Below, in pieces: positions 403 through 19,104 of a stretch of DNA of 32,000 bases (its first letter is position 1; each line of letters begins with the position of its first letter). A model generated the notes under the pieces. It was not told where the DNA came from. It searched no databases and saw only the letters and a list, made by a program, of their open reading frames with translations. This DNA is from Promethearchaeia archaeon. GTDB lineage: Archaea > Asgardarchaeota > Lokiarchaeia > Sigyniarchaeales > SOKP01. Location: contig JAWOFX010000167.1 in the NCBI GenBank assembly GCA_046497275.1, positions 1 through 32,000 on the forward strand, written 5' to 3'. The translations under genes and the position numbers were made by a program.

Positions 403-1857
403 TTAACTCGCGATAATTGAGAGGATATTGATTAGTGAATTTACTTTATTCATAATGTTTATTCCGAAAGAAGAGAGATATTTTGTTTGATAATTTACAT
501 TCACATCAATCGGAGGAAATAGCATTTTAGAGGTTCTACTTAGATTAACGTAATCTTTAAAACTATTGGTTTTTAGGTTTATTCCGAAGTGATGGTCATA
601 GTGGTGTATAGGGCATCCAGGAGTTATAATAATCGGTTCGGTCCAAAATGATGTGGTATTATGTGAAGAAAGACTTTTTACAAACAATTTAAATGCATAG
701 AGAAAGTTATTTAATACATCTATCCCTGTTTCTTGAGGATTTCCTATATCCCAAAATAATCTCAAGGGAACTTTATGCTTATTCATTAAGTTAATTAAAC
801 CATCAAGATCAGAATTGGTAAATCTAAATGAATTATCTAATCTTCCATATAATTTATGAAACTTTTTCCTATAGGATTCTGAAAAAGATCTAGCACTAAA
901 CCAAATTATAGATTTTTCTAAATCATAAGTCTTAGCAAAATCACGGGTTGCTTTCTCACTGATAGGTAATCTCCATAATTCTAAATCTGCATGAATATCT
1001 AATTTCTCTTCACGGATTAATTTATTAATCTCCATAAAATATTTTTCGGTAACAGGATAAATTCCATGTCCATAATAAATACCATTTACATCACTTATTT
1101 CAGCAACTTTTTTTATATCTTCAACAACTTTTTCTGGAGATCTAAAAATCGTTTTTTTCCTGCCTATATAACGACTATAGGTTGCATAAGAGCCAGCACA
1201 ATTAACACAATTAAAGGGGCATCCTCTTGCCATTTCGACAGGCCATGCATTATGCATTACATTATATGTATAGGAAATATATTCTTTCCAATGTTCTAAG
1301 AAATGGAAATTAGTGAAATTTAAGTCATCCAAATTTTCTGTTAAATAGGTTATATTATTATCATAAATTTTTCCATTATTCCGATATATTAGATTGGGGA
1401 CTTTATCTAAGGAATTGATATGTTTAGCTAATTGAACTATTGGCACTTCTGCGTCACTTTTAATGATACCATCAATGAAATCATAAGCATTCATAATTTC
1501 TTCAGCAAAATATGTTGCTGTATATCCACCTAAAACAGTAAAAGAGGAGGGACAGAGAATTTTTGCCATTTTTATAACATCCAGAGCTCCAGCACTATGT
1601 AAAGCCCATTGGAGGTCGACTCCTATAATTTTAGGATTAAATCTTTTGAGATATTTAGGTAAGGAGAAGTTAGGATTTAAATGCTTTTCTAATGCATAAT
1701 TAATTATTTTTACATTAAAACCTTCTCTTTCAAGCAAATCCGCCATAGAAAACAATCCCATTGGCATCGTTAAATAGGAGCTCCTTTTTTCCAGGTTATG
1801 AGTTAAAAACTCAAAATTACGAGGTGGATGTATAAAAAGTAAATCAAGTTCTGTCAT
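403..1857 (-). CDS. B12-binding domain radical SAM protein
   Basis: N-terminal cobalamin-binding fold signatures (LFIHPP, PMGLFSMA, IIGVDLQWALHS, VLGGYTAT) and the CxxxCxxC motif ARGCPFNCVNCAG followed by FRSPEKVVEDI. Confidence 0.9.
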   Translation of the reverse strand: MTELDLLFIHPPRNFEFLTHNLEKRSSYLTMPMGLFSMADLLEREGFNVKIINYALEKHLNPNFSLPKYLKRFNPKIIGVDLQWALHSAGALDVIKMAKILCPSSFTVLGGYTATYFAEEIMNAYDFIDGIIKSDAEVPIVQLAKHINSLDKVPNLIYRNNGKIYDNNITYLTENLDDLNFTNFHFLEHWKEYISYTYNVMHNAWPVEMARGCPFNCVNCAGSYATYSRYIGRKKTIFRSPEKVVEDIKKVAEISDVNGIYYGHGIYPVTEKYFMEINKLIREEKLDIHADLELWRLPISEKATRDFAKTYDLEKSIIWFSARSFSESYRKKFHKLYGRLDNSFRFTNSDLDGLINLMNKHKVPLRLFWDIGNPQETGIDVLNNFLYAFKLFVKSLSSHNTTSFWTEPIIITPGCPIHHYDHHFGINLKTNSFKDYVNLSRTSKMLFPPIDVNVNYQTKYLSSFGINIMNKVNSLINILSIIAS

Positions 1858-1993
1858 ATTTTCTTATACCTTATTAAATTACATATATATCTTCTGTACT
1901 ATTTTCTTACGATAGAAATGATAATATTTTGTTTATTTTTATAATTGTTCTATTCTTATATTATTATCTTATAGTGTTTTCTACAAAAATATT

Positions 1994-2003
1994 AAAAAAA
2001 AAA
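1994..2003 (-). terminator. Oligo-T archaeal-type terminator after GT2 copy a; equivalents at 4313-4321 (T9) and 7693-7699 (T7)
   Basis: T-runs on the minus strand about 12-14 nt downstream of each GT2 stop codon. Confidence 0.4.
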
Positions 2004-2016
2004 TTTGAAATAATTA

Positions 2017-3369
2017 TTATTTAGATAAATTTTCGGTTTCAATGATTTGTTTTTCCAGTATGACTGGAGTTTGTTCCCAACTCATATCTTCGGGCAGAGT
2101 GAATTGCCTTATGAAATGATAAAAATGAATCCATCCACTTACTGGCCAATAAAATAATAAACTATAATGTTTATCAGAATATTTTCGTATTGCATTTATG
2201 AAATAACCAACATTGAATATAATCCAAGATAGAGTCCATATTAGTAAATAATATTCACTAATAAAGAAGAACAATACTGATAAGACAATAGGAATGATAA
2301 AGTTGGTATCTGTGTTAGCAAAGATAAACATAGTTAGATTTCTCGGAATAATTATAGCTTTTCCCGTTTTTTCCTCTCCTTCCATTTCCATTAATTCGGG
2401 CGCGTCTAAGGTAAATCCTGCCATCCATCGTGTTCTCTGCATTTTCAAAACTTCCACATTATCTGGAACTGTATCATAAGCCTTTGCTTGCGGAACAAAG
2501 AGAATATCAACACCATCTAAATTCAAGAGTACTTGCAGATAAAGATCTTCTGTTAAAGAATTTTCGTTGAATCCCCCATATTTTTTTAAATATTTCGTTC
2601 TTAAAGCAATATTACGGCCAAATAAAAATGCTGAACATCCCAATCTATTTCTTGTCTCAAATAGGAGTCCTCCTCCACAACATAAACCGTATTCAAGCAT
2701 TATTCCTCTAGTTAAAGCATTATCTTTCCAATTTTTTACGGATAATGATCCAATAACTGCATTATATTGTTGAAATTGGAATGGATTAACTAAATGGGTA
2801 AGACATTCAGGCGTCAAAATGTTGCCACAATCATAGAATATAACAATATCATGTTTGATATGTTCTATCCCCAAATTAAGCTTAGAAGGTTTGCCTGGAT
2901 TTGGAGGTATTTCTGATATCGTCTTTATATCCATCATACTCCCATATTTTTCTGCAAATTGGTGACTAAATTCCGTCGTACCATCAGTTGATTCACCTGT
3001 GAGTAATATTAGTTGAATATGCTCTTTTGGATAAGTTGTCTTCAAAAGAGAATCTAATGTTTGCTCTAATAGCACCTTTTCGTTTTTCGAAGGGATCATT
3101 ATAGTTATGTCTGGATAATATTCTTCTTTCATTCTGTAACCTTTTCCAAAGGAAGCGAGAAAAAAGATTCCGTAACCCATTATAAGTGCTAATAAGAGCA
3201 TTAACCCAATGCACGGAAAAATAAATAACCAATTTCCAAGGGGGTTAGCAAAAAATGCATCTATCGCGATTTTTACCCCTGAATTCCATTGAGTCGGCCA
3301 GAATATATGTAGCAATACAAAGTAGGCAATAACTACGATTGCATATGGTAAAACTCTACTTATTTTCAT
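2017..3369 (-). CDS. GT2 glycosyltransferase, processive/cellulose-synthase-like superfamily (copy a)
   Basis: N-terminal TM segments, ITIMIPSKNE, PGKPSKLN, YDCG, LTED, QRTRW (QxxRW), C-terminal TM helices. Confidence 0.9.
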   Translation of the reverse strand: MKISRVLPYAIVVIAYFVLLHIFWPTQWNSGVKIAIDAFFANPLGNWLFIFPCIGLMLLLALIMGYGIFFLASFGKGYRMKEEYYPDITIMIPSKNEKVLLEQTLDSLLKTTYPKEHIQLILLTGESTDGTTEFSHQFAEKYGSMMDIKTISEIPPNPGKPSKLNLGIEHIKHDIVIFYDCGNILTPECLTHLVNPFQFQQYNAVIGSLSVKNWKDNALTRGIMLEYGLCCGGGLLFETRNRLGCSAFLFGRNIALRTKYLKKYGGFNENSLTEDLYLQVLLNLDGVDILFVPQAKAYDTVPDNVEVLKMQRTRWMAGFTLDAPELMEMEGEEKTGKAIIIPRNLTMFIFANTDTNFIIPIVLSVLFFFISEYYLLIWTLSWIIFNVGYFINAIRKYSDKHYSLLFYWPVSGWIHFYHFIRQFTLPEDMSWEQTPVILEKQIIETENLSK

Positions 3370-3380
3370 ATATCAACACT
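3370..3380 (-). promoter_or_regulatory. Conserved GT2 leader/RBS (AGTGTTRAWAT-ATG); equivalents at 5692-5702 (GGAGTG core) and 9064-9074
   Basis: AGTGTTGATAT, AGTGTTAATAT and AGTGTTAAAAT immediately precede the three GT2 ATGs. Confidence 0.55.
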
Positions 3381-3419
3381 TCTTTTTTTCATTTTTAATT
3401 TTTTAATTTTTTATTTTTT

Positions 3420-4271
3420 TTAATTAAATAAATCACTTCTCAGTGATCTCGTATATTTTTTTATTTCTTGATTTGAATTGATTGTTTCAATTCTTTTTCC
3501 AATGATCATAAAAAAATCATTTCTGACAAGAAAAAGAATTTCACACATATCGATAACAAATTTCTTTAAATCATAGAATGGTTCATTCTGATGAAGAATT
3601 ATTGTGTGAACATGATTTTTATTATATTTGAAAGCAAAAGGAAAAAGCTTTTTAATATTAGGGATATAAAAAAGAGATAAGTGAAATAAAATCTGGTTTT
3701 TGTCAGTTTGATAAACAAATCGTGGTGTAATTGAAGATTTTTGTCTAATAAATTTTACATTTTTCCAAAAATTAAATTTTTTAAATCTTTTATAATAGAG
3801 GGGGAAAAATGAATCATTTTTAAATATCAATACTGGATTATAAAATTGTCTTTCTAAAAATTCTGATTCAAACTCTTCTTCTTTATTAGAACTTGAGTTA
3901 TAAGTCTGATAATAATAAAAGAAATTAATATCTAATAACGAAAAATTTAATTCTTCTGGATATCTCATCCTTGTATAGAAACGAAAGAGAATTCCGTTGA
4001 TATTAAATAGAAAACCATAAAAAAAAATAATATCTAATAGATTTCCTATGCTAAATTGTAAGGTGGGACCTATCCTTGAAGTAAATTCAAAAATCTTAAA
4101 CTTAGAAAACCAAGGAAATAGTATAGATCCTCCAGAAACCATATAATCGCAAAATAAATATTTCAAATTTGGTATTTGGCTTAAATAGTTCAACAATAAA
4201 ACTAAAGGGATATAAGATAGAAGGCATATCATCAAAATAATAATTTTAGACGTTAAAGTTTTCTTTGACAC
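3420..4271 (-). CDS. Uncharacterised membrane protein X (copy 1, shorter), GTG start
   Basis: Paralogous to 6647-7651 and 9110-10099; shared motifs YLFCDYMxSGGSILFPW, GNLLDII, CEILFLxRNDFFMI; synonymous differences between copies (e.g. GTC vs GTT Val) support this frame. Confidence 0.75.
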   Translation of the reverse strand: MSKKTLTSKIIILMICLLSYIPLVLLLNYLSQIPNLKYLFCDYMVSGGSILFPWFSKFKIFEFTSRIGPTLQFSIGNLLDIIFFYGFLFNINGILFRFYTRMRYPEELNFSLLDINFFYYYQTYNSSSNKEEEFESEFLERQFYNPVLIFKNDSFFPLYYKRFKKFNFWKNVKFIRQKSSITPRFVYQTDKNQILFHLSLFYIPNIKKLFPFAFKYNKNHVHTIILHQNEPFYDLKKFVIDMCEILFLVRNDFFMIIGKRIETINSNQEIKKYTRSLRSDLFN

Positions 4272-4332
4272 GGTTAAGTTCTTTTGTTTATTATTTGTCT
4301 AATCATATAATTAAAAAAAAATTAAGAAAATT

Positions 4333-5691
4333 TTATTTAGATTTAGATAAATTCTCGGTTTCAATGGTTTGTTTCTCCAATATGACTGGTGTTTGTTCCC
4401 AACTTAGGTCCTCGGGTAAGGTAAATTGCCGTATGAACATATAAAAATGAAAAAATCCGCCTATAGGCCAATAAAGCAATAAACTAAAATGTTTATCACA
4501 ATATTTCCATATTGCGTTTAGGAAATATCCAAATTGGAAAAGAACACAAGATAAACTCCAAAATAACAGATAATATTCACCAACCAATGAAAATAATATT
4601 GCAAATACTACAGGAATACCCATCCAAGAATCTACATTACCAAAGATAAACATAGTTAGATTACGTGGAATAATTATCTGTTTTCCGGTTTTTTCTTTTC
4701 CTTCCATTTCCATTAATTCAGGGGCATCTAACGTAAATCCTGCCATCCACCGAGTTCGTTGCATTTTCAAAACTTCCACATTATCTGGAACTGTATCATA
4801 AGTCTTTGCTTGCGGAACAAAGAGAATATCAACACCATCTAAATTCAAGAGTACATGAAGATACAAATCTTCTGTTAAAGAGTTCTCGTTGAATCCCCCA
4901 TATTTTTTTAAATATTTCGTTCTTAATGCAACATTTCGGCCAAAAAAAAATGCTGAACATCCCAATCTATTTCTTGTTTCCAATAGGAGTCCACCCCCAT
5001 CAGTTAAGCCATAGGAAACCATAACACCTTTAGTTAAAGCATTATCTTTCCAATTTTTTACGGATAAAGGTCCAATAACTGCATTATATTGTTCAAATTG
5101 GAATGGATTAACTAAATGGGTAAGACATTCAGGCGTCAAAATGTTGCCACAATCATAAAATACAACAATATCATGCTTGATATGTTTTATCCCCAGATTA
5201 AGCTTAGCCGGTTTCCCTGGATTTGGAGGTACTTCTGAATCAGTTGTAATATCCATCATATTTCCATATTTTTGGGCAAATTGTTCACTAAATTCCGTTG
5301 TACCATCGGTTGACTCTCCCGTAAGCAATATTAGTTGAATATGCTCTTTTGGATAAGTGGTTTCTAAAAGAGAATCCAAGGTCTGCTCCAATAATATTTT
5401 TTCATTTTTCGAAGGGATCACTATAGTTATGTCTGGATAATATTCTCCTTTCGTTCTATAGCCTTTTCCAAAGGAAGCAAGGAAAAAGATACCGTAAACT
5501 ATATTTAGCACTAATAATAGCATTAATCCGATGAATGGAAAGATAAATAACCAATTTCCAAGTGGGTTAGCAAAGAAATTATCTATAGCAATTTTTACTC
5601 CTGAATTCCATTGAGATGGCCAGAAGATATGTAGCAACACAAAGTAGGCAATAACTACGACTGCATATGGTAAAACTCTACTTATTTTCAT
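4333..5691 (-). CDS. GT2 glycosyltransferase (copy b)
   Basis: Same motifs as copy a: IPSKNE, PGKPAKLN, YDCG, LTED, QRTRW. Confidence 0.9.
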   Translation of the reverse strand: MKISRVLPYAVVVIAYFVLLHIFWPSQWNSGVKIAIDNFFANPLGNWLFIFPFIGLMLLLVLNIVYGIFFLASFGKGYRTKGEYYPDITIVIPSKNEKILLEQTLDSLLETTYPKEHIQLILLTGESTDGTTEFSEQFAQKYGNMMDITTDSEVPPNPGKPAKLNLGIKHIKHDIVVFYDCGNILTPECLTHLVNPFQFEQYNAVIGPLSVKNWKDNALTKGVMVSYGLTDGGGLLLETRNRLGCSAFFFGRNVALRTKYLKKYGGFNENSLTEDLYLHVLLNLDGVDILFVPQAKTYDTVPDNVEVLKMQRTRWMAGFTLDAPELMEMEGKEKTGKQIIIPRNLTMFIFGNVDSWMGIPVVFAILFSLVGEYYLLFWSLSCVLFQFGYFLNAIWKYCDKHFSLLLYWPIGGFFHFYMFIRQFTLPEDLSWEQTPVILEKQTIETENLSKSK

Positions 5692-5739
5692 ATATTAACA
5701 CTCCTTTTTTTTATTTTCGATATTATTTTTCGATTCATT

Positions 5740-6666
5740 TCAATTTTCAATTTTTTTAAGATTTTTATAGCTATAATTTCCTAACTGTATACAGCATACA
5801 ACCATAATAACGAATAGAGTAAATTGAGAAATCAAAATACACCATGTTATCACTGCGGGATGAGATACGCTCCATGCCACATTTAAAGCAGGATTAATCA
5901 GATTGGTTAAGAAAACTGAGATACTAGAAATTCCGTAAATCATGAAGAAAGTAGATAGAATTATTACTCGCATCGGTCTTTCTCCTATATATGGGTTAAT
6001 TTGATGTAATCCTAAACCTTCATGCCTTGCTCTCATATATTCATATAGTTGAATCAATAATATGTTTGTCCAGACTATCCATGAAAAATCTAATCCAACA
6101 TTTTGAAGAATTAAAATATTTCCTGGAATCAATCCTACTAACATTAATATATCACTAATTCTATCGATTACATTATCAAACCACGCCCCGCTTTTAGATT
6201 TTTTATTGGATAATCTCGCAATTGCACCATCTATTCCATCAATAATTCCAGCTCCTAAAACTAGAAGGGAAGTAATGATAAATAGTGAGCCAAAAACTGG
6301 CTGTTCAGTAAATAAATTAAGTGAGTGGCCTTTACCTCCCATAACCGAAGTATAAAAGATAAAAAAAGATAATATTAAATTTATCAATGATACTTTATTA
6401 GGACTTACCCTTAATTTCAAAAAGAATTTTGCTCCTTTATAAGTTATGGGCATATACAACTTTCCTGTAGGTTCACTTTTTATTCTTTTAAATTGCTTAT
6501 CCATTTTATGTCCTTGTCCATGACCCAATAGCCAATCTCTTATAAATTCATCTAAGTTCATCAATTCAGGTTCTTTGTATTCATTTTTAATTCCACTGAT
6601 TAGAATTATCAATAGTAATACCAATAATATAATTGGAAAATATAGCTCAAAGATTATTTCTGTCAA
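5740..6666 (-). CDS. CDP-alcohol phosphatidyltransferase family protein, TTG start
   Basis: Family signature DxxDGxxAR...GxxxDxxxD present as DGIDGAIARLSNKKSKSGAWFDNVIDRISD; SPNKVS; multiple TM segments. Confidence 0.92.
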   Translation of the reverse strand: MTEIIFELYFPIILLVLLLIILISGIKNEYKEPELMNLDEFIRDWLLGHGQGHKMDKQFKRIKSEPTGKLYMPITYKGAKFFLKLRVSPNKVSLINLILSFFIFYTSVMGGKGHSLNLFTEQPVFGSLFIITSLLVLGAGIIDGIDGAIARLSNKKSKSGAWFDNVIDRISDILMLVGLIPGNILILQNVGLDFSWIVWTNILLIQLYEYMRARHEGLGLHQINPYIGERPMRVIILSTFFMIYGISSISVFLTNLINPALNVAWSVSHPAVITWCILISQFTLFVIMVVCCIQLGNYSYKNLKKIEN

Positions 6667-7651
6667 ATATATACCTCATTTTATATTTTTTATTTAAATT
6701 AATTGTTTGAATTCTCTTTCTGCTGATCATAAAAAAATCATTTCTAACAAGAAAAAGAATTTCACACAAATAGACGAAAAATTTTTCTAAATCAGATAAT
6801 AAATCATTCTGATCATTAATTATTGTGTGAGCTTGATTTTTGTAATATTTTTTACTTAATTGAGAAAAGAATTTAATATTAGGGATAAAAATAATATGAG
6901 AATGAGAAAAATTGATTATAAAATTCATTATGACAAGTATGTCTCTATTATTTTGATTAGTAATTAAATAGGGTTTGTTATTAAAGAAGTAAGACCTAAA
7001 TTTTAACCAAAGTAGGACAATTGAGTAAAGAATGATAAAATCAGAAAAAAATAATAAAGATAAATTCGAAAAAATATGTTTTTTATAAGATTCATGAGGA
7101 GGATGTAATTTAATCCAGGATCTTGTTCTTATGAATTTTAGGTTTTTCCAAAAATAAATATTTTTAAAATGTCTATACAGTTCTGAAAATAAAAATTTAT
7201 TTTTAAATATGAGTAATGGTTCATAATCTTGGTGATTTAAAAATTCCTGTTTGAAATCTTCTTTATTAGACTTTGTATGGTTGATCTGATAATAATAGAA
7301 AAAATTAATACCTGAGAATAAAGAATTTGATTCATCTGAATATTTGATCCTTGTATAAAAACGAAAGAAAATTCCATTGATATTAAATAGAGCAACATAA
7401 AAAACAATAATATCTAACAAATTTCCTAAGCTAAAGTTTATATTTGGTCCTATTTTTGATGTAAATTCAAAAATTTCAAACGATGAAAGCCAAGGAAAGA
7501 GTATTGACCCTCCAGAAATCATATAATCGCAAAATAAATATTTTAAAGAGGGTAATTGACTTAAATAGTTTATTAATAAGACAATAGGGAAATATGAGAG
7601 AAGAGATATCATCAAAATAACAATTACATGCTTAAATGCTTTTTCTAACAT
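6647..7651 (-). CDS. Uncharacterised membrane protein X (copy 2)
   Basis: 334-aa ORF with conserved X motifs; stop overlaps the start of the CDP-alcohol transferase by 20 nt. Confidence 0.75.
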   Translation of the reverse strand: MLEKAFKHVIVILMISLLSYFPIVLLINYLSQLPSLKYLFCDYMISGGSILFPWLSSFEIFEFTSKIGPNINFSLGNLLDIIVFYVALFNINGIFFRFYTRIKYSDESNSLFSGINFFYYYQINHTKSNKEDFKQEFLNHQDYEPLLIFKNKFLFSELYRHFKNIYFWKNLKFIRTRSWIKLHPPHESYKKHIFSNLSLLFFSDFIILYSIVLLWLKFRSYFFNNKPYLITNQNNRDILVIMNFIINFSHSHIIFIPNIKFFSQLSKKYYKNQAHTIINDQNDLLSDLEKFFVYLCEILFLVRNDFFMISRKRIQTINLNKKYKMRYIFDRNNL

Positions 7652-7710
7652 TTGTATTCCCTTTTGATTATTATATTTTTTATAATTAAATTAAAAAAAT
7701 TGAAATAAGA

Positions 7711-9063
7711 TTATTTAGATATATTTTCGGTTTCTGAGACTTGTTTTTCCAACAATATTGGAGTTTGCTCCCAACTCATCTCTTCTGGCAAAGTAAACTG
7801 GCGTACAAAATGATAAAGAAGTATGTAGCCGCTAATTGGGAAATATAGCAATAGGCTATAGTGTTTATCCCCATATTTTCGTACTGCGTTGAGTAAATAG
7901 CCAAATTGGAATAATACACAAGATAAACTCCAACTTAGTAAATAATATTCTCCGAATATCGCAAATAATATTGAAAATATAATTGGAATTGGCGACCAGG
8001 TATCAACATTCCCATATGTAAACATTGTCAGATTTCTTGGAATAATTACTGCTTTTCCATTTTTTACCTTTCCTTCCATTTCCATTAGTTCTGGGGCATC
8101 TAATGTAAATCCAGCCATCCAACGGTCTCGTTGCATTTTCAAGATTTTCCAATTATCCGGAACGGTATCATAAACTTTTGCTTGAGGAACAAAATGAATA
8201 TCAATTCCATCCATATTTAATAATACTTGAAGATACAGATCTTCTGTTAAGGAATCCTCTTTAAATCCCCCAAATTTCTTTAGATATTTTGTTCTCAATG
8301 CAACATTACGGCCAAATAGAAATGTTGAAGAGCCTAAACGATTTCTCGTTTCAAATAAGAGCCCTCCACCACAAACATGGGAATATTCAAGAGCTATCCC
8401 TTTAGTTATATAATTATCTTTCCAATTTTTCACTAATACGGGACCTATAACTGCATTATATTTTTCATATTGGAACGGATTGATTAAATGTGTGAGAGTA
8501 TCGGGCTTCAGAATGTCGCCACAATCATAGAATACAACAATATCATGCTTGATATGTTTTATCCCCAGATTAAGCTTAGCTGGTTTCCCCGGATTTGGAG
8601 GTACTTCTGAATCAGTTGTAATATCCATCATATTTCCATATTCTTGGGCAAAATTTTCACTAAATTCCGTCGTACCATCCGTAGATTCTCCTGTAAGTAA
8701 TATTAATTGGATATGCTCTTTTGGATACGTCGTTTCTAAAAGAGAATCTAAAGTCTGCTCTAATAATACTTTTTCATTCTTCGAAGGTATCACTATACTT
8801 ATGTCTGGATAATATTCTTCTTTCATTCTATACCCTTTTCCAAACGAAGCAAGGAAAAAGATACCGTAAGCTATGTTTAGCACTAATAATAGCATTAATC
8901 CAATGAAAGGAAAAATGAATAACCAATTTCCAAGAGGGTTAGCAAAAAATGCATCTATCGCGATTTTTACTCCTGAATTCCATTGGGTCGGCCAGAATAT
9001 ATGTAGCAATACAAAGTAGGCAATAACTACGACTGCATATGGTAAAACTCTACTTATTTTCAT
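7711..9063 (-). CDS. GT2 glycosyltransferase (copy c)
   Basis: IPSKNE, PGKPAKLN, YDCGD, LTED, QRDRW; TM segments at both ends. Confidence 0.9.
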   Translation of the reverse strand: MKISRVLPYAVVVIAYFVLLHIFWPTQWNSGVKIAIDAFFANPLGNWLFIFPFIGLMLLLVLNIAYGIFFLASFGKGYRMKEEYYPDISIVIPSKNEKVLLEQTLDSLLETTYPKEHIQLILLTGESTDGTTEFSENFAQEYGNMMDITTDSEVPPNPGKPAKLNLGIKHIKHDIVVFYDCGDILKPDTLTHLINPFQYEKYNAVIGPVLVKNWKDNYITKGIALEYSHVCGGGLLFETRNRLGSSTFLFGRNVALRTKYLKKFGGFKEDSLTEDLYLQVLLNMDGIDIHFVPQAKVYDTVPDNWKILKMQRDRWMAGFTLDAPELMEMEGKVKNGKAVIIPRNLTMFTYGNVDTWSPIPIIFSILFAIFGEYYLLSWSLSCVLFQFGYLLNAVRKYGDKHYSLLLYFPISGYILLYHFVRQFTLPEEMSWEQTPILLEKQVSETENISK

Positions 9064-9109
9064 ATTTTAACACTTTTTATTTTTTATTTATAATTTTTTA
9101 ATTTTCAAT

Positions 9110-10099
9110 TTAACAACTAATAAAATCATTTTTCAATGATTTCATCCATTTTTTATTTTTATTATTCAAATTAATTGTTTGAATTCTTTTTCTATTGATC
9201 ATAAAAAAATCATTTCTAGCAAGAAAAAGAATTTCACACAAATCGATAGTAAATTTCTTTAAATCACAGAATAGTTCATTCTGATCAATACTTATTGTGT
9301 GAACGTGATTTTCGTAATATTTTTTACTTAATTGAGAAAAGAATTTAATATTTAGGATAAAAATAAGATAACAGCGTGAAAAAATGATGAGGATGGTTAA
9401 TGTAAGTTTATCCTTGGTTTCTTGAATAGTAATAAAATAAGATTTTTTATTATAATAGTAATAAGAAAATTTTAACCAAAGAAAAACAATTTGGAAGAGA
9501 ATGATAAAATTAGAAAAAATAAATGGTTTAGAGATCTTATGGGAAAATTTTAATTTATTAATAGACCCTAATCCTATAATTTTAAATTTTTTTCTTAGAG
9601 TTTTTTCTTTAAATCTTCTAATAGGGTGTATAGATAAAAGTTTATTATTAGATATGAATATAGAGTCGAAATTTTGACTATTTATGAAATCTAACTCCAT
9701 ATTTTCTTCTATATCAGAAGTTTCATTATTTGGTTGATAATAATAATAAAAATTAAGATCTGAGAGTAATGAATTTGGTTCTTCTGGATATCTAATTCTA
9801 GCATAAAACCTAAATATAACTCCATTAAGATAAAAAAGAACATTATAGAAGATAATAATATCTAATAAATTCCCTAAACTAAAAAATACATTCGGTCCTA
9901 TTCTTGAGGTAAATTCAAAAATCTTAAAAGAGGATAACCAAGGAAAGAGTATTGATCCTCCAGAAATCATATAATCGCAAAATAAATACTTTAAATGAGG
10001 TAAATTACTTAAGTGGTTTAATAAAAAGATAAGAGGGATATATGAAAGAAGAGATATCATCAAAATGATAATTTTGATCTTTAAATCCTTCTTTAACAA
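9110..10099 (-). CDS. Uncharacterised membrane protein X (copy 3), TTG start
   Basis: 329-aa ORF with conserved X motifs at N- and C-termini. Confidence 0.75.
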   Translation of the reverse strand: MLKKDLKIKIIILMISLLSYIPLIFLLNHLSNLPHLKYLFCDYMISGGSILFPWLSSFKIFEFTSRIGPNVFFSLGNLLDIIIFYNVLFYLNGVIFRFYARIRYPEEPNSLLSDLNFYYYYQPNNETSDIEENMELDFINSQNFDSIFISNNKLLSIHPIRRFKEKTLRKKFKIIGLGSINKLKFSHKISKPFIFSNFIILFQIVFLWLKFSYYYYNKKSYFITIQETKDKLTLTILIIFSRCYLIFILNIKFFSQLSKKYYENHVHTISIDQNELFCDLKKFTIDLCEILFLARNDFFMINRKRIQTINLNNKNKKWMKSLKNDFISC

Positions 10100-10231
10100 A
10101 TTTAATCCCTTCTCTTAATTTTAGTAATGTCTAAATAATTTTTTTTAACAAAAAATAATATATAAAGTTTGTTATTTGTTGATCCAATAATAGTCAAAGA
10201 GAATATTGAATCATTTTTTCACTAAAAAATA

Positions 10232-11311
10232 TTAATAAAAGATGTCTTCATTAAAATCTTTAACAGTATTGATCATAGCTTTCACATTTTCGGGTTTGAC
10301 TATTGTATTTAATTGTTGAGTCGGGGAAATTATTATACGAGAATTGTACTTTTTTGCAGATCTTATTAATCTCCTAACATATTGGTCAACTTTAAAAGGA
10401 TTGCTATAAGTTAATAAGCTTCCATTATCGAGATTTCCTATGAAACAAATTTGATTACTATATTTTTTAAAAAGTTCAAAGATGTTATTTCCCGCAGTTG
10501 ATTCTATACTTTGTATTCCATCGAAACCCACCTCAATAATAAGATCAAATAGGTTGGAAATATAGCCATCTGAATGGAGGATTATATGATTTTGGTTAGA
10601 ATGTATCATTTCAACAATATCTTGATATTTTTTAAAAAAAAGTTCATGAATTAAATTTTTAGGAATAAAAGTTCTCTGCTTATATCCTAGATCATCCGCT
10701 ATAAGAAAAATTGATGCCCCCGAGTCTTGTAAAAGCTTAATTAATTTTATCAAATAATCGTAGAAAAACTGAATAACTATATTTATTAGTTCTATGTTAT
10801 TTCTTAGAGATTTTGAAAAAGTTATAAATCCCATCGACTGCCATGTTTTCTCAAATAAGCCCGGTAAAGATAAAAAAAAATCAATCCCTTCTGTATTTTC
10901 CAGAAATTTCTTGAGTCTTTTAAGTTCCTTCTGATTTGGGGTTTTTAATTTTGACCAAGTTTCAACGATCTTTTCAGTTTTAAACACTCCCTCCCAGGAA
11001 TACCATCCATTTTTATAGACTCTACCCCATGAATCTATTCTTTCTTTGTTTTTTTCTAAATTATAATTATCATCTGATGCAACTCTTCGAAAATCCCATA
11101 ACGAAACTGCATCAAATCCCATATTTTTAATAATCGAATAATCTTTTCCGTTTAGTATTAAATCTTCATTATGATCAGAAGGAATATTATATTTATTCCT
11201 ATAATTCTCAATAAAAAGGTCTTCAGGAAAACCAGTGCAATATAATGAAATCTTGTTCTTTTCCGTTTTAGTAAGAATTTTTTTAAAGGAAATTTTATAT
11301 CTCTCTGAAAT
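10232..11311 (-). CDS. Uroporphyrinogen decarboxylase / MtaA-CmuA methyltransferase superfamily protein; probable non-canonical (ATT) start
   Basis: ADDLG, HSDG, GFDGIQSIE and CFIGNLD motifs; frame is open for 63 codons upstream of the ATG at 11122 to an in-frame TAA at 11314-11312 (ISERYKISFKKIL...). Confidence 0.8.
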   Translation of the reverse strand: MSERYKISFKKILTKTEKNKISLYCTGFPEDLFIENYRNKYNIPSDHNEDLILNGKDYSIIKNMGFDAVSLWDFRRVASDDNYNLEKNKERIDSWGRVYKNGWYSWEGVFKTEKIVETWSKLKTPNQKELKRLKKFLENTEGIDFFLSLPGLFEKTWQSMGFITFSKSLRNNIELINIVIQFFYDYLIKLIKLLQDSGASIFLIADDLGYKQRTFIPKNLIHELFFKKYQDIVEMIHSNQNHIILHSDGYISNLFDLIIEVGFDGIQSIESTAGNNIFELFKKYSNQICFIGNLDNGSLLTYSNPFKVDQYVRRLIRSAKKYNSRIIISPTQQLNTIVKPENVKAMINTVKDFNEDIFY

Positions 11312-11419
11312 TTATTTAAATAGGGTATTTCTCTTAAACAATATAATTATTTGATTTAATTAGAAATTTATTTGATTATAAATTTTCAATTATAAATTAA
11401 TAGTTTTTTATTTGATATT

Positions 11420-12556
11420 ATGAATTATTGGGAAATAGTAGCTGAAATATATAATTCGAGCTTAACCTACACATTATTGGCGATAGTATTTTTAATGGTG
11501 TATATAGGTAATAAAGGAAGGAAAAAAAACCCATACGGGAGTTTATCTACCTTTGTTTGCGCGGGATTATTACTATTTGTAGCATATTATAATTCAATTT
11601 TTGGGCTTTTTGATTATCCTTTCAATGGTTTTATGATGTGGTGGATTGGATTCTTATTAATTTTATTTGGTGGATTTGGCTGGCAAGTTAAAAAAAAATT
11701 AAATGAAATGGATGACCAAGATTTACTTAAACCAAATGATGAGTTATCTAGAATGGAAAGATATCTTAAAAAAATGAATGAAGAAGATCCCTATAGGGAT
11801 CAAATTCCAATAAAAATGGAAATAGTCCGGAAGAGCTTTCACCTAACTGGATTATTATTTATTTTTGGATATTTCAGTCTTTTCTTTCTGCCCCCAATCG
11901 CAGATTTAGCAAATTTAGGAATAATTGTTTTAATAAATTCAACTGAATCAGTTTATAATTTTTTTTGGGGGGACTTAGCTAACTACCCTTATCTTATAGG
12001 AAGTTTTGAGGCCATTATTGATATTACTTTGTTCGGTTTAGTTGGAGCATTTATGTTTATGATTATTTCTGATTTAATTAGAGTATTATGGGCACCAAAA
12101 TATTCAATGTTCAATTTCTTAACTCGTTCTGTGTTGAGGAATCAAGAAAAAAACGCAGTAGGACCCCATATTTATTTAATTGTTGGAGCAATTTTTTCCT
12201 ATATCTTATATGTGCTTGGAGTAGTTCATATTTTAGCATTCACAGCGGGATTGATGATAGCATGTTTTTCTGATGCTTTAGCCGCATTAGTAGGGAGGAT
12301 ATTCGGAAATAAAAAAGTAATTTGTATGGGGGGTCAAGAAAAAACAGTAGAAGGGTTTATTGCAGGTGTCGCAAGTGCGTATCTTTTTGGGTTATTTATT
12401 GTTGGACCATTATATGCTCTAGTAGGGGCATTTATATTTTTCTTATTTGATTATTTTCCAATGCGAATTGCTGATAATATCTTAAATCCCATTTTCATAA
12501 CCTTAGGAATTCAGATTACTCAAATCATAATAGGTTTTCCTTTAGGTCTCTTTTAA
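11420..12556 (+). CDS. CTP-dependent polyprenol/diacylglycerol kinase family (dolichol/phytol kinase-like) membrane protein
   Basis: RKSFH motif, SDALAALVGRIFG..K..KTVEGFIAG cytidylyltransferase-family motif, DNILNP, many TM helices. Confidence 0.85.
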   Translation: MNYWEIVAEIYNSSLTYTLLAIVFLMVYIGNKGRKKNPYGSLSTFVCAGLLLFVAYYNSIFGLFDYPFNGFMMWWIGFLLILFGGFGWQVKKKLNEMDDQDLLKPNDELSRMERYLKKMNEEDPYRDQIPIKMEIVRKSFHLTGLLFIFGYFSLFFLPPIADLANLGIIVLINSTESVYNFFWGDLANYPYLIGSFEAIIDITLFGLVGAFMFMIISDLIRVLWAPKYSMFNFLTRSVLRNQEKNAVGPHIYLIVGAIFSYILYVLGVVHILAFTAGLMIACFSDALAALVGRIFGNKKVICMGGQEKTVEGFIAGVASAYLFGLFIVGPLYALVGAFIFFLFDYFPMRIADNILNPIFITLGIQITQIIIGFPLGLF

Positions 12557-12712: not shown

Positions 12713-13558
12713 ATGATTGAACTAATTAGCGAATTAAAAGATCTTAAATTAGCAATATTTGATTTAGATGGTGTAGTTTATCGAGGAAATCAATTAATAG
12801 ATAATGTTGATAAAATTATTGAAAACTTAAAGCAACACGAAATAGAAGTGGTATATAATTCAAATAATTCCACAGCAACTCGAGAAATGTATGTTAAACG
12901 ACTAAATAATATGAAAATTCCAAGTAAAAAAGAGGATTTTTATACAAGTGCTTCAATAACTGCATCTGAGATCGCTAAATTAAAAAAAAATGCCAATATA
13001 TTTGTAATTGGTGAAGTTGGGCTAAGAGAGGAACTCAAGTCAAAAGGACATAACATTATTACAAAAGAAAGTAAGTATATGGATGTTGATTTCGTAATTG
13101 TGGGATTGGATAGACATTTCAATTATAAGAATTTAAGTATTGCTCAAAAATGTATAATAAAAGGGAAAGCTAAATTTTATGCCACTAATTCCGATTCCAC
13201 TTTACCAAGTGAGGATGGATTAATGCCTGGAGCGGGTGTAATGGTTAACGCGGTGTATACATGTACAAATAAAAACCCTATAAAAATTTTTGGAAAACCT
13301 AATCCTTTTGGAATTTTATCAATATTAGAGGAGAAAAAAATTAGACCTGATAAAGCATGCATATTTGGTGATAGATTAAATACCGATATTATTGCGGGCA
13401 ATAGGGCAGGTATAAAAACAGTAGCAGTTCTAACTGGTGTCGCAACAATGGATGAAATAAATAGTCTCAAAAATAAATCAAATAAAACAGATCAAATCGA
13501 TAAAAATTTAATTCCCGACTTAGTACTTGAAAACCTAAGCTATATCTTTAAGAATTAA
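12713..13558 (+). CDS. HAD-IIA hydrolase (NagD-like phosphatase)
   Basis: FDLDGVVY, SNNS, ATNSD, GKPNP, GDRLNTDI. Confidence 0.92.
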   Translation: MIELISELKDLKLAIFDLDGVVYRGNQLIDNVDKIIENLKQHEIEVVYNSNNSTATREMYVKRLNNMKIPSKKEDFYTSASITASEIAKLKKNANIFVIGEVGLREELKSKGHNIITKESKYMDVDFVIVGLDRHFNYKNLSIAQKCIIKGKAKFYATNSDSTLPSEDGLMPGAGVMVNAVYTCTNKNPIKIFGKPNPFGILSILEEKKIRPDKACIFGDRLNTDIIAGNRAGIKTVAVLTGVATMDEINSLKNKSNKTDQIDKNLIPDLVLENLSYIFKN

Positions 13559-13917: not shown

Positions 13918-14130
13918 ATGAAATTTTTTCTCCCTAAAACCTTGTTAGTATTATCATAATAATACAAATACTTGTTTTTAAACTTCTTTAGTCCTACTTA
14001 AAATTGTAATAAAAATCTTTTTTCAAAATTTTCTTCATTTATCTCAATTCAAAAAACTCGCAGACTCTTTACGTTTAAAATGTTTGTCTACTTATAACTC
14101 ATAAGCTTTTAAAATGAGGGAACGAATTAA

Positions 14131-14319
14131 ATGAATAATATTGTTCAAAAAAGAATAACAGAACTTCAACGTGCTATAGAAATTTTAGAAGATCATCTGA
14201 ACAAATTTAAACATAATATCAATTTAGAACAAGTGAGATTTATTCAAGGAAAACTTGATCTGTATAAAAGAGAAATAAAAATTCGGAAAGATTTTCCGGT
14301 TGCTGAAATAATAAATTAA
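14131..14319 (+). CDS. Small helical hypothetical protein (62 aa)
   Basis: GAGGG upstream of ATG; amphipathic heptad pattern (ITELQRAIEILEDHL; IQGKLDLYKREI). Confidence 0.6.
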   Translation: MNNIVQKRITELQRAIEILEDHLNKFKHNINLEQVRFIQGKLDLYKREIKIRKDFPVAEIIN

Positions 14320-15050: not shown

Positions 15051-15626
15051 TTAGAAAGTTCTGGTTTCTTGAGTCAAAACCCCAGATCTCTGCATCAAAA
15101 CATGAGTTAGTCTTCGAAAAATCTCCTCAACATTTTCCCCGGTTTTTGCTGAGCATTCAATATAATCATATAAATTCTGAACTTGAACTACTTTTTTTGC
15201 TTGTTCATGGGTGACTGAGCGCTTATATTTAAGATCTAATTTTCCCCCAACCATTAATACTGGGAGTGAATTACCATGGTTTTTCATATGATAGCCATTT
15301 CTAAAAATATTTAACCAGTCATCAAAATTTTTCAAACTGGTATATCGCGTAATATCGAACATAAAAATTCCTCCTGCAGCTCCGTGAACATAACTTGGCA
15401 AAAGAAATCGGAATCTATCTTCACCGGCAAAATCCCAAATTTGCAATGATACTTTTTTCCCATACATCATGAGTTTTTTCACGTAAAAATCAACACCGAT
15501 TGTCATAGTGGTGGATGTATCGAAGATTCCTGTAAGGTAGCGCTTAACTAGAGTGGTCTTTCCTACCCCCCCATCGCCAAATATGATTAATTTGAACAAA
15601 AAGTCGCTGGAAATCTTATTTTTCAC
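15051..15626 (-). CDS. Rab-like small GTPase
   Basis: G1 GDGGVGKT, effector TIGVDF, G3 WDFAGEDRF, G4 GGKLD, G5 ECSAK; no C-terminal prenylation cysteines. Confidence 0.93.
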   Translation of the reverse strand: MKNKISSDFLFKLIIFGDGGVGKTTLVKRYLTGIFDTSTTMTIGVDFYVKKLMMYGKKVSLQIWDFAGEDRFRFLLPSYVHGAAGGIFMFDITRYTSLKNFDDWLNIFRNGYHMKNHGNSLPVLMVGGKLDLKYKRSVTHEQAKKVVQVQNLYDYIECSAKTGENVEEIFRRLTHVLMQRSGVLTQETRTF

Positions 15627-18708: not shown

Positions 18709-19104
18709 ATGAATGAAAAAAACTTATCAGATCCTTCAAATATTGATAGGTTGAGTCAAATAATCCAGAGTCTTAAAGAGAAGGCAAATTTATCTGGAAT
18801 AATTCTATCCTATAGGGACGGTAGAACTATAGTAAAAGAGATTGAGGGAGTCCATCAGATTGATCAGTTTATACCTTTGATTGCTTCTGCATTACGTAGT
18901 GCTGAGGATTTGGGAATTACTGTTAATGGAAGTACTCTTCACAAAATAATTGCTCAATTAGAGAATTTTTCTATTATGATTTTAAAATGTAGTAGTAAAG
19001 ATGTCTTTTTAACTTTAATTATCAATGAAGCGTCTAATCTTAAACCCATTTTAGAAAATTATGAGGAACTTTCAAAAAAGATTGCAAAACATATAGAGAT
19101 TTGA
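18709..19104 (+). CDS. Roadblock/LC7 domain protein
   Basis: GIILSYRDGRTI, helix ASALRSAEDLG, beta strands IIAQLENFSIMILK and FLTLII; 131 aa. Confidence 0.8.
   Translation: MNEKNLSDPSNIDRLSQIIQSLKEKANLSGIILSYRDGRTIVKEIEGVHQIDQFIPLIASALRSAEDLGITVNGSTLHKIIAQLENFSIMILKCSSKDVFLTLIINEASNLKPILENYEELSKKIAKHIEI

Follow-up and report, generated by a model that had tools for sequence, protein, structure and literature searches.

The nine genes described here, from a Lokiarchaeon-type Asgard (Promethearchaeota) archaeon, are best read, at roughly even odds (probability about 0.5), as a species-specific tandem expansion of a conserved core operon, in which a membrane GT2 glycosyltransferase would glycosylate a lipid-linked product and members of a membrane protein family, X, would serve as an adaptor for the whole pathway.

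Gene content and triplication

The window analysed is a 32,000 nt stretch of DNA, of which positions 403-11311 hold nine minus-strand genes, all in one orientation. In transcription order they encode a UroD/MtaA-like protein (10232..11311), X3 (9110..10099; 329 aa, from a TTG start), GT2c (7711..9063; 450 aa), X2 (6647..7651; 334 aa), a CDP-alcohol phosphatidyltransferase (5740..6666; 308 aa), GT2b (4333..5691; 452 aa), X1 (3420..4271; 283 aa, a short form), GT2a (2017..3369; 450 aa) and a B12-binding radical SAM enzyme (403..1857; 484 aa). The start of the CDP-alcohol transferase gene and the X2 stop overlap by 20 nt. Content, order and co-orientation are all as given in the first-pass annotation, and its description of a membrane-associated biosynthetic locus is supported. 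The CDP-alcohol transferase, the GT2s and the radical SAM enzyme all have intact catalytic motifs.

The triplication of an X-GT2 unit, also proposed there, is borne out by protein identities of 79-84% among the GT2s and 56-59% among the X proteins and by DNA repeat families 66-90% identical and spaced 2.3-3.4 kb apart. A gap of 46-50 nt separates the members of each X-GT2 pair. About 50 nt ahead of each GT2 ATG align as a common leader (3370..3419, alignment A5; 5692..5739, where it follows the CDP-alcohol transferase; and 9064..9109). T-tracts of T7-T10 lie 12-20 nt past each GT2 stop and at the same relative position (an archaeal terminator-like T10 at 1994..2003 for GT2a, T9 at 4313..4321 for GT2b and T7 at 7693..7699 for GT2c); like the leaders, they are on the minus strand. 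Since T7 runs are frequent in this AT-rich window (110 observed versus 94 expected), the tracts are meaningful only by their positional homology. The triplication is no assembly artefact because independent metagenome contigs show the same order: one reads X2-CDP-GT2b-X1-GT2a-rSAM (L005), another UroD-X3-GT2c-X2 (L007), and a third terminates in UroD-X3 (L006). With an AT-rich box ahead of X and a T-tract behind GT2 as boundaries, X3-GT2c, X2-CDP-GT2b and X1-GT2a have the appearance of separate transcription units. Values of dN/dS for the GT2s are 0.09-0.18 (0.12-0.18 for GT2a), and the three paralogues may well be functional isoenzymes that purifying selection has maintained and gene conversion has partly homogenised.

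The conserved core

The CDP-alcohol transferase matches PF01066 at 40.1 bits (cut-off 22) and has the full motif D1xxD2GxxAR...GxxxD3xxxD4, invariant in 25 orthologues. It is directly upstream of GT2, and co-directional with it, at 54 of 58 species-representative loci, and the same order is found at all 20 hand-annotated loci; a LuxE-like gene is directly downstream of GT2 at 35 of the 58. The conserved core in Promethearchaeota/Helarchaeota is a CDP-alcohol transferase followed by a GT2, usually then by a LuxE-like adenylating enzyme. This tight coupling supports the transferase as part of the system. Comparison reverses the idea that it had been inserted into the middle module: judged by gene order across relatives, transferase then GT2 is the apparent ancestral arrangement, and the two X-GT2 units without the transferase are the apparent derived ones.

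The families and solved structures nearest to this transferase are archaetidylinositol-phosphate (AIP) and PIP synthases, and, with its full motif and its pairing with a glycosyltransferase, it recalls the synthases that feed PIM- and GPI-type pathways. However, it falls under every NCBIfam equivalog cut-off (the best match, archaetidylinositol-phosphate synthase, scores 76.6 bits against 180), its N-terminus carries an additional transmembrane helix, it has a soluble segment that is also conserved, and paralogues closer to AIP synthases are encoded elsewhere in the source genome. In that genome, which is 98.9% complete, no inositol-1-phosphate synthase was found. The glycosyltransferases of the known PIM- and GPI-type pathways are GT4 enzymes, not synthase-like GT2 enzymes.

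The locus GT2s match Pfam GT2 families and have TED and QRxRW motifs and a 2+3 layout of transmembrane helices. The second Asp of the DxD motif is absent, D-[S/C]-G being invariant in its place in 25 orthologues, so these enzymes may be atypical in their donor or in how they use metal. A synthase-like GT2 may, as a counterpoint to a lipid pathway, make a secreted polymer instead: the three enzymes would then be processive synthase-translocases forming a homopolymer of the PNAG, chitin or hyaluronan type, primed or decorated by the CDP-alcohol transferase and gated or assembled by X. Besides the motifs and helix layout, the matches point this way, PgaC_IcaA (PNAG synthase) being the best in NCBIfam (E 3e-27) and hyaluronan synthase (HAS), BcsA and PcManGT the best Foldseek matches of an AF2 model of GT2b (pLDDT 77), with E-values of 6e-14 to 1e-12 for HAS and BcsA. 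But TM-scores are only 0.45-0.51, part of the predicted channel region (residues 317-351) has a pLDDT under 50, and non-processive lipid glycosyltransferases (ceramide glucosyltransferase, HpnI, PcManGT) also match and have the same motifs. Export or outer components are absent from the locus, and GT2 has a phospholipid-type transferase as its invariant neighbour. Secretion of a homopolymer is unlikely.

Protein X and its partners

X is a real protein. The frames, of 284-335 codons at 22-24% GC, have 1 in-frame stop compared with 21-43 in the other two frames; the probability of their being open by chance is ~1e-11 to 1e-13, and none of 20000 shuffles remains open. The N-terminal membrane domain of the protein, made of two helices, is conserved (motifs SGxSxFxP and GxLxD); the linker after it is under weak constraint, and the C-terminal part is hydrophobic. 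X1 lacks a stretch of about 50 residues carrying hydrophobic segments 3 and 4, a deletion identical in its orthologue on L005 (P0012), and the overall dN/dS between these two is 0.78, with values of 1 or more outside the N-domain. That loss and that relaxation are what might be expected if the X genes were decaying, functionless remnants of duplication, but all the frames are open, the N-domain of X2 and X3 is under purifying selection (0.16-0.36), and the family, with its invariant G, S, P, G and D positions, is kept across three taxonomic families; decay is very improbable. The X family was found only in three related families of the source genome's class (f1, f4 and f5); 230 further genomes from the phylum had no member.

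The first reading of the locus made X the dedicated partner of GT2. In its full form, each GT2 would depend on an X as a small, obligate partner in the membrane, and the three pairs would glycosylate a lipid head group in sequence. The precedents are PgaC/PgaD and IcaA/IcaD, in which a membrane GT2 with QxxRW and 2+3 helices similarly adjoins a small two-helix-hairpin protein, and it is to such synthases that the best NCBIfam match of the locus GT2s belongs. X and GT2 were co-duplicated twice with their short gaps retained, which in the source species still suggests some pairwise relation, and GT2 is present in 28 of 32 X-positive genomes. However, X proteins have a long tail and a length of 230-330 aa, and the GT2 match scores 95 bits where the cut-off is 422. 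Among 120 genomes of the taxonomic family, 49 are GT2-positive and 21 of these have GT2 only, without X. Outside the source species X is directly ahead of GT2 at just 1 of 58 loci (within 3 kb at 10 of 62); at other loci the CDP-alcohol transferase intervenes, its start overlapped by the X stop. X-like genes also lead operons without GT2 (rSAM-SPASM, ABBA prenyltransferase and LuxC types), including ones composed of soluble enzymes alone, and they lead U32 operons as well; the conserved residues of the N-domain are identical in all operon types. X is no exclusive subunit of GT2, its position as the gene directly before GT2 is peculiar to the source species, and obligate pairing is decidedly improbable.

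The tightest partner of X is a radical-SAM/SPASM pair. Every one of the 26 genomes with SPASM orthologues is X-positive, and in them X is the first gene, with the two rSAM-SPASM genes usually right behind it. Enzymes of the rSAM-SPASM type are classically peptide or protein maturases. X would on that account fit better as a substrate than as an adaptor, since the enzymes that track it are such maturases with an extra N-terminal domain. In that role X would be anchored in the membrane as a precursor or carrier, its N-terminal leader conserved and its tail variable, and would be tailored into a RiPP-like product or a protein-lipid or protein-glycan conjugate; the candidate tailoring enzymes are rSAM-SPASM, B12-rSAM, prenyltransferase, U32, sulfotransferase, GT2 and CDP-alcohol transferase. 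The conserved head, the weak constraint on the rest of the protein (dN/dS 0.55-1.3) and the several paralogues in a genome are consistent with this. So is a DUF2621-like domain of ~85 aa common to five of the enzyme families, which in the SPASM enzymes takes the N-terminal position of RiPP recognition elements. There is an archaeal precedent in Methanococcus, where the SPASM enzyme CrpC modifies a whole neighbouring protein, CrpA (PMC13692751). Unlike in the maturase systems, however, the head of X is a membrane hairpin, and no conserved target residues were found, X-like proteins of the same operon type sharing no conserved residue or motif past position 115. Tail composition tracks genomic GC, as would a linker; the common domain is DUF2621-like, not a PqqD-type RRE; lipid-type enzymes are interleaved; the SCP2 domain described below points to lipid; and 21 genomes have the CDP-GT2-LuxE core without X. 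We know of no RiPP leader that is a membrane hairpin, and CDP-alcohol transferases are, to our knowledge, enzymes of lipids and small alcohols, not of proteins. X as the substrate is rather unlikely. In the preferred reading X, found at the head of most operons of the system, is most likely a membrane adaptor that would gather the enzymes and their membrane-bound substrate.

Radical SAM, UroD-like and flanking genes

The B12-binding radical SAM enzyme (class B) has CxxxCxxC and matches PF02310 at 41.3 bits, above cut-off, and TIGR04190 at 238 bits against a cut-off of 500. Its inclusion in the system holds up: Ta0216-type orthologues are syntenic in several relatives and close the operon in four (L005, L032, L033, L064). 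In HpnI/HpnJ, the sugar that a GT2 attaches to a lipid is subsequently remodelled by a radical SAM enzyme (PMC13459092). The locus resembles HpnI/HpnK/HpnJ and calditol synthase (Cds) in having a GT2 and a B12-type radical SAM enzyme in one operon, but it has no deacetylase, its scores are 39 bits against 310 for HpnI and 33 against 578 for HpnJ, and the nearest family to its radical SAM enzyme is the uncharacterised Ta0216 family.

The UroD/MtaA-like gene is less secure. PF01208 matches at 67.8 bits in the C-terminal half only. The frame is open from 11311 (359 aa), with its first ATG at 11122 (296 aa); relatives are called as 369 aa from a TTG start, and the window carries TAA at codon 10 of that call. 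Synteny is confined to the species-level relatives L006 and L007 and, together with the X-like operons without GT2, this counts in part against the system as first proposed. A divergent plus-strand gene (11420..12556; 378 aa), syntenic only in the same two relatives, encodes a multi-pass membrane protein resembling the CTP_transf_1 family (CdsA/dolichol kinase). It has an Atlas feature score of 0.96 to clusters named phosphatidate cytidylyltransferase, though PF01148 gives E 0.0012 and 19 bits, under the cut-off of 24; it may be a pathway member. An HAD phosphatase gene also adjoins the locus.

A wider system and its product

Another contig of the source genome, C44, carries two SPASM genes, three B12-rSAM genes, an ABBA prenyltransferase, a U32, a U32 fused to an SCP2 lipid-binding domain, a sulfotransferase, two LuxE genes and a second CDP-alcohol transferase; the five families with the DUF2621-like domain are of this C44 type. 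Elsewhere the orders X-CDP-GT2-383aa-U32/SCP2-U32-rSAM (L033), CDP-X-GT2 (L059) and CDP-GT2-X-LuxE (L065) are found. U32-family anaerobic hydroxylases and an SCP2 lipid-binding protein are combined in UbiU/UbiV/UbiT, and the U32 proteins here, one fused to SCP2 and elsewhere in an X-CDP-GT2 operon, are reminiscent of this. Their Pfam-level matches are weak, however, the genes are on the other contig, outside the window, and no quinone ring-synthesis genes were identified in the wider system.

Because gene orders interleave in this way and the source genome holds the remaining enzymes on C44, the two sets form one larger biosynthetic system, specific to the lineage, of which the locus is one half. 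The first step would take place on the cytoplasmic side of the membrane, where the CDP-alcohol transferase would attach a head group through a phospho linkage to an acceptor, either a lipid or a lipid-linked molecule. GT2 would then glycosylate the product, and the B12-radical SAM enzyme and the C44 tailoring enzymes would modify it further. We lean towards lipid because of SCP2 on a U32 enzyme, the two integral-membrane transferases, the neighbouring CTP_transf_1-like protein and HAD phosphatase, and the precedent of HpnI/HpnJ and calditol synthase for head-group chemistry by GT2 and radical SAM enzymes (PMC13459092). Judging from the enzymes encoded, what the system makes is most likely a glyco-phospholipid head group.

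Gene order and transcription

Nine co-oriented genes on the minus strand, between positions 403 and 11311, are transcribed in the order UroD/MtaA-like gene, X3, GT2c, X2, CDP-OH, GT2b, X1, GT2a and B12-binding radical SAM gene, exactly as listed in the first-pass annotation (X1 to X3 are orphan membrane proteins, GT2a to GT2c membrane glycosyltransferases, and CDP-OH a CDP-alcohol phosphatidyltransferase). The source genome is 3.85 Mb and 98.9% complete, and the window is the initial 32 kb of its contig C47, which ends at window position 1 just past the radical SAM gene. The gene order is recovered in independent metagenome contigs from three samples. That the locus is real and functional is a firm point. 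Relatives with the same genes carry the names Promethearchaeota or Promethearchaeia (the former Lokiarchaeota) and Helarchaeota. Elsewhere in the window are a Ras-family small GTPase (15051-15626, minus strand) and a roadblock/LC7-like protein with a weak MAPKK1_Int match (18709-19104, plus strand), both typical Asgard signature genes.

The triplication of X plus GT2 stands, with 79-84% identity among the three GT2s, 56-59% among the X proteins and DNA repeats 66-90% identical across the modules. So do the leader common to the GT2 genes, which is homologous over about 50 nt 5′ of each start codon, and the T-tracts, a run of T7-T10 lying 12-20 nt past each GT2 stop. Read from the alignment, TATA-like AT-rich boxes are present in the interval from each T-tract to the X start that follows it. 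Because of these leaders, T-tracts and boxes the three modules look like separate transcription units. A scan for sigma-70 promoters and hairpin terminators, which is uninformative for an archaeon, gave nothing above shuffled sequence.

The ancestral core

The neighbours of GT2 were counted at 62 species-representative loci (58 of them not ending at a contig edge), and 20 loci were annotated by hand. Directly upstream and co-directional is CDP-OH in 54 of the 58; in 35 loci GT2 is followed directly by a LuxE-like adenylating enzyme. It is firm that the ancestral core is CDP-OH then GT2, not X then GT2, and equally firm that the X-GT2 triplication is a recent elaboration, confined to the species level and accompanied by gene conversion. 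An insertion of the CDP-OH gene into module 2 was considered and rejected, CDP-OH then GT2 being the ancestral order.

It had been proposed that X is the dedicated partner subunit of each GT2, in the manner of PgaD or IcaD. Each GT2 of this locus does have an X of its own in its module. Across the relatives the pairing dissolves: X is directly upstream of GT2 at one of 58 loci and within 3 kb at 10 of 62, and it is absent from 21 of the 49 GT2-positive genomes. A dedicated partnership is, on these figures, improbable. Among 120 genomes, which are samples of incomplete MAGs and of relatives that are not independent, 49 are GT2-positive and 32 X-positive, with both present in 28, X only in four and GT2 only in 21. 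Orthologues of the first radical SAM-SPASM enzyme (SPASM below) occur in 26 genomes, every one of them X-positive, the gene usually lying directly after X; orthologues of a protein joining U32 and SCP2 domains occur in 12, of which 11 are X-positive. X-like genes head operons of several compositions: X, CDP-OH, GT2, a 383-aa protein, U32+SCP2, (U32) and B12-radical SAM; X, two SPASM genes and B12-radical SAM; X, SPASM, ABBA prenyltransferase and a U32-like protein; and X, an unlabelled protein and LuxC. X firmly belongs to a wider family, which marks the operons of a more extensive system and is more closely associated with the SPASM enzymes than with GT2.

The two membrane transferases

All three GT2s score over the Pfam cut-offs (PF13641 98-107 bits, PF13632 74-82, PF00535 64-73), have two N-terminal and three C-terminal helices, and carry LTEDLY and MQR(D/T)RW; E274, D275, Q311, R312, R314 and W315 are invariant in 25 orthologues. 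At the position of the metal-binding DxD motif, residues 179-182 (codons 2821-2832, 5143-5154 and 8515-8526, minus strand), the sequence is Y-D-[C/S]-G, with no second acidic residue conserved. Loss of the second Asp is a family trait and not a local defect, since D180 and G182 are invariant in 25 of 25 aligned orthologues.

An AF2 model of GT2b (pLDDT 77) gave Foldseek matches to the hyaluronan synthase XlHAS1 (E 6e-14), the cellulose synthase BcsA (3.5e-13) and the archaeal mannosyltransferase PcManGT (5.7e-13), at TM-scores of 0.44-0.51, and in the model the transmembrane helices are predicted to pack on the GT-A domain as in solved synthases. The best named family is the PNAG synthase PgaC/IcaA (TIGR03937), for which the score is 95.4 bits against an equivalog cut-off of 422.3. 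These likenesses would suit GT2s that are synthases of a secreted polymer. The GT2 features themselves fail to tell a processive synthase from a lipid monoglycosyltransferase, and the constant neighbour of GT2 is a phosphatidyltransferase; we consider polymer synthesis unlikely, though a little less so than the dedicated partnership of X.

The GT2 genes are under strong constraint (dN/dS 0.09-0.18) and are recombination mosaics (window 2017-9063): a and c are 98% identical over nt 1-90, b and c 89-97% over nt 181-540, and a and b 91-97% over nt 541-990, the greatest divergence in all pairs being at nt 991-1260, the C-terminal membrane helices. GT2 is single-copy in nearly all genomes, and three copies are found only in this one. 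The Helarchaeota genome Hel_GB_B (locus L114) has an independent duplication, CDP-OH-GT2-GT2-LuxE, and in a congener (G004, loci L064/L065) CDP-OH-GT2 occurs at two separate places, in one of which X lies between GT2 and LuxE. Full-length relatives at 35-37% identity, here with no CDP-OH, are present in a bacterial MAG of Candidatus Deferrimicrobium (L132) and in Helarchaeota Hel_GB_A (L124, L125).

CDP-OH matches PF01066 at 40.1 bits (cut-off 22), has the complete D1xxD2GxxAR...GxxxD3xxxD4 motif, invariant in 25 orthologues, and bears an additional helix at its N-terminus as well as a soluble segment that is conserved. Archaetidylinositol-phosphate synthase and the PIP synthases are its nearest known counterparts, yet it lies below their cut-offs (76.6 bits against 180 for the archaetidylinositol-phosphate synthase equivalog NF040950). 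The genome carries six members of the CDP-OH family, and two other paralogues score 162 and 132 bits for NF040950. A search of this 98.9% complete genome for inositol-1-phosphate synthase (MIPS, PF01658) found none. That CDP-OH is the archaetidylinositol-phosphate synthase of the genome was rejected on these three grounds: its sub-cut-off score, the closer paralogues elsewhere and the MIPS result.

Other genes of the locus and its flank

The radical SAM protein has a B12-binding domain (PF02310, 41.3 bits, cut-off 32.1) and its cluster motif CxxxCxxC reads CPFNCVNC; PF04055 is matched at 24.1 bits, under the cut-off of 29.5. Nearest is the uncharacterised Ta0216 family (TIGR04190), at 238 against a cut-off of 500; for HpnR the figures are 71 against 650 and for HpnJ 33 against 578. 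The UroD-like protein matches PF01208 over the cut-off (67.8 bits), aligned only at profile positions 160-345 (the C-terminal half), and is far below the cut-offs of the MtaA/MtbA equivalogs. In relatives this gene is called as 369 aa from a TTG start; in the window (11123-11341, minus strand) a TAA stands at codon 10 of that call, there is no ATG, GTG or TTG before the ATG at 11122, and the 63 codons between are conserved with the relatives. Given that stop, the lack of such starts and the conserved codons, the gene would have either a non-canonical start (ATT at 11311) or an N-terminal truncation.

Divergent from the locus is a 378-aa multi-pass membrane protein (11420-12556, plus strand), CTP_transf_1-like in the manner of CdsA or dolichol kinase (an Atlas score of 0.96 and a sub-cut-off Pfam match at E 0.0012), followed by a HAD-IIA phosphatase (12713-13558, plus strand). 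The pair would fit lipid head-group work, its synteny being confined to species-level relatives.

The X proteins

Each X frame runs for 284-335 codons with a single stop, at a GC content of 22-24%, where the other two frames have 21-43 stops, and of 20000 shuffled sequences none stays open; the X genes are real. The first 125 codons of X2 and X3 are under purifying selection (dN/dS 0.16-0.36), the middle region is weakly constrained (0.55-0.9) and the last 80 codons have a dN/dS near 1. Since that value goes with low dS, the pattern fits gene conversion spanning the X 3′ end and the GT2 leader. X1 is without about 50 residues, two hydrophobic segments among them, and its orthologue has the same deletion; in view of a dN/dS of 0.78 against that orthologue, X1 may be degenerating.

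The conserved part of X comprises about 110 residues at the N-terminus, a domain in which two hydrophobic helices flank a conserved loop and G47, S49, P53, G76 and D80 are invariant or nearly so. A word-indexed search of 5.8 billion proteins matched only the X proteins of the locus and near relatives, and a full HMM search of 1.84 billion representative proteins gave 16 clusters only. In the window's family X occurs in 32 of 120 genomes; it occurs also in two neighbouring families, and a search of 230 further genomes from the phylum found it in none. Neither Pfam nor NCBIfam has a match to X, a profile search of the N-domain against PDB gave nothing at E up to 1, and an ESM Atlas feature search with whole X2 and with residues 1-125 gave no usable match. 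The AF2 model of X2, from a 7-sequence alignment, is unusable at pLDDT 32. A three-chain prediction of the X2 N-domain, GT2b and CDP-OH, from their own alignments, scored 0.00, which gives no verdict for or against a complex.

The X-like proteins of GC-richer relatives (L027, L028 and L031, of family f4) have tails rich in Arg, Ala, Gly and Pro that end in a hydrophobic helix and a basic tip, reminiscent of sorting signals at the C-terminus of proteins; none of the known sorting motifs was recognised in these tails.

A companion cluster and a shared domain

Contig C44 of the same genome (G000) carries a companion cluster of about 22-30 kb with the rest of the system (35200-57800; L037:7221-18359 and L045:1066-10760). 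Its order is B12-radical SAM, the X-like gene X4, two SPASM genes, B12-radical SAM, ABBA prenyltransferase, a 381-aa protein, U32+SCP2 and an IS transposase, then LuxE, sulfotransferase, B12-radical SAM, U32, a weak X-like ORF, a second CDP-OH and LuxE. The transposase gene, of the DDE type (L037:18469-19776), is inserted mid-cluster. The weak ORF before the second CDP-OH (X5, L045:7593-8384) has the same layout as X and a weak similarity to its N-domain (hhalign probability 8.6%), the invariant residues being missing, so that it is at most a candidate member of the family. As genes of the C44 type share single operons with CDP-OH and GT2 in other genomes, intermixed with them, the two loci are best read as one system.

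A helical domain of about 85 aa with a weak DUF2621 match is found at the N-terminus of both SPASM enzymes and the ABBA prenyltransferase, at the C-terminus of U32 and within U32+SCP2 (L037:9665-9988, 11041-11364 and 13958-14230; L045:7112-7372; L033:15903-16190). Its presence in five enzyme families suggests a common docking or substrate-binding module, and hence one common partner or substrate moiety. One copy has a weak match to the C-terminal domain of protochlorophyllide reductase (PCP_red). Together with AhbD/NirJ-like best matches of the SPASM enzymes and the UroD-like gene, this gives a tetrapyrrole-related lead and only that, all scores being far below cut-offs.

Head-group pathway or modified protein

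The reading that we favour, with a probability of about 0.5 for its two parts jointly, is that the locus would encode a glyco-phospholipid head-group pathway in which X would be a pathway-wide membrane adaptor. The head-group reading is favoured because the invariant core consists of two integral-membrane transferases of lipid type, because an SCP2 lipid-binding domain is in the same operon in relatives, because the CdsA/dolichol-kinase-like membrane protein and the HAD phosphatase flank the locus here, and because lipid head-group chemistry by a GT2 with a radical SAM enzyme has precedent (PMC13459092).

The main rival, distinctly less probable though the strongest of the others, makes X the substrate of a protein-modifying pathway, the X proteins being membrane-anchored precursors or carriers. 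There is a documented archaeal SPASM enzyme whose target is an entire protein encoded next to it (PMC13692751), and X resembles a RiPP precursor in adjoining a maturase gene and in having a conserved leader and a variable core. In the X-like proteins no column is conserved past residue 115 that might serve as a modification site in such a core, and the domain shared by the enzymes matches DUF2621, not PqqD, a recognised RRE. If X were the substrate, its tailoring set might be the two SPASM enzymes, several B12-radical SAM enzymes, the ABBA prenyltransferase, U32-type anaerobic hydroxylases with SCP2, the sulfotransferase, CDP-OH and the GT2s; the 85-aa domain might recruit the soluble ones by docking; the three X-GT2 modules could each pair a variant substrate with a glycosyltransferase of its own; and the product could be a heavily modified, membrane-tethered protein-lipid-glycan conjugate of a new class.

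Significance

Asgard archaea are the archaea closest to eukaryotes, and their membrane lipid and surface chemistry bears on the origin of the eukaryotic membrane; to our knowledge, next to nothing has been described of the specialised head groups in these archaea. The locus defines a conserved CDP-OH-GT2-LuxE core that is particular to Promethearchaeota and Helarchaeota, the orphan family of X membrane proteins, and a companion cluster whose enzymes share a small domain. These are concrete, clonable targets for lipidomics, and they allow one to ask whether membrane proteins are substrates of radical SAM/SPASM enzymes in archaea. A product that is just another glycophospholipid would make the locus moderately interesting; if X is a modified substrate, this would be a new kind of system.
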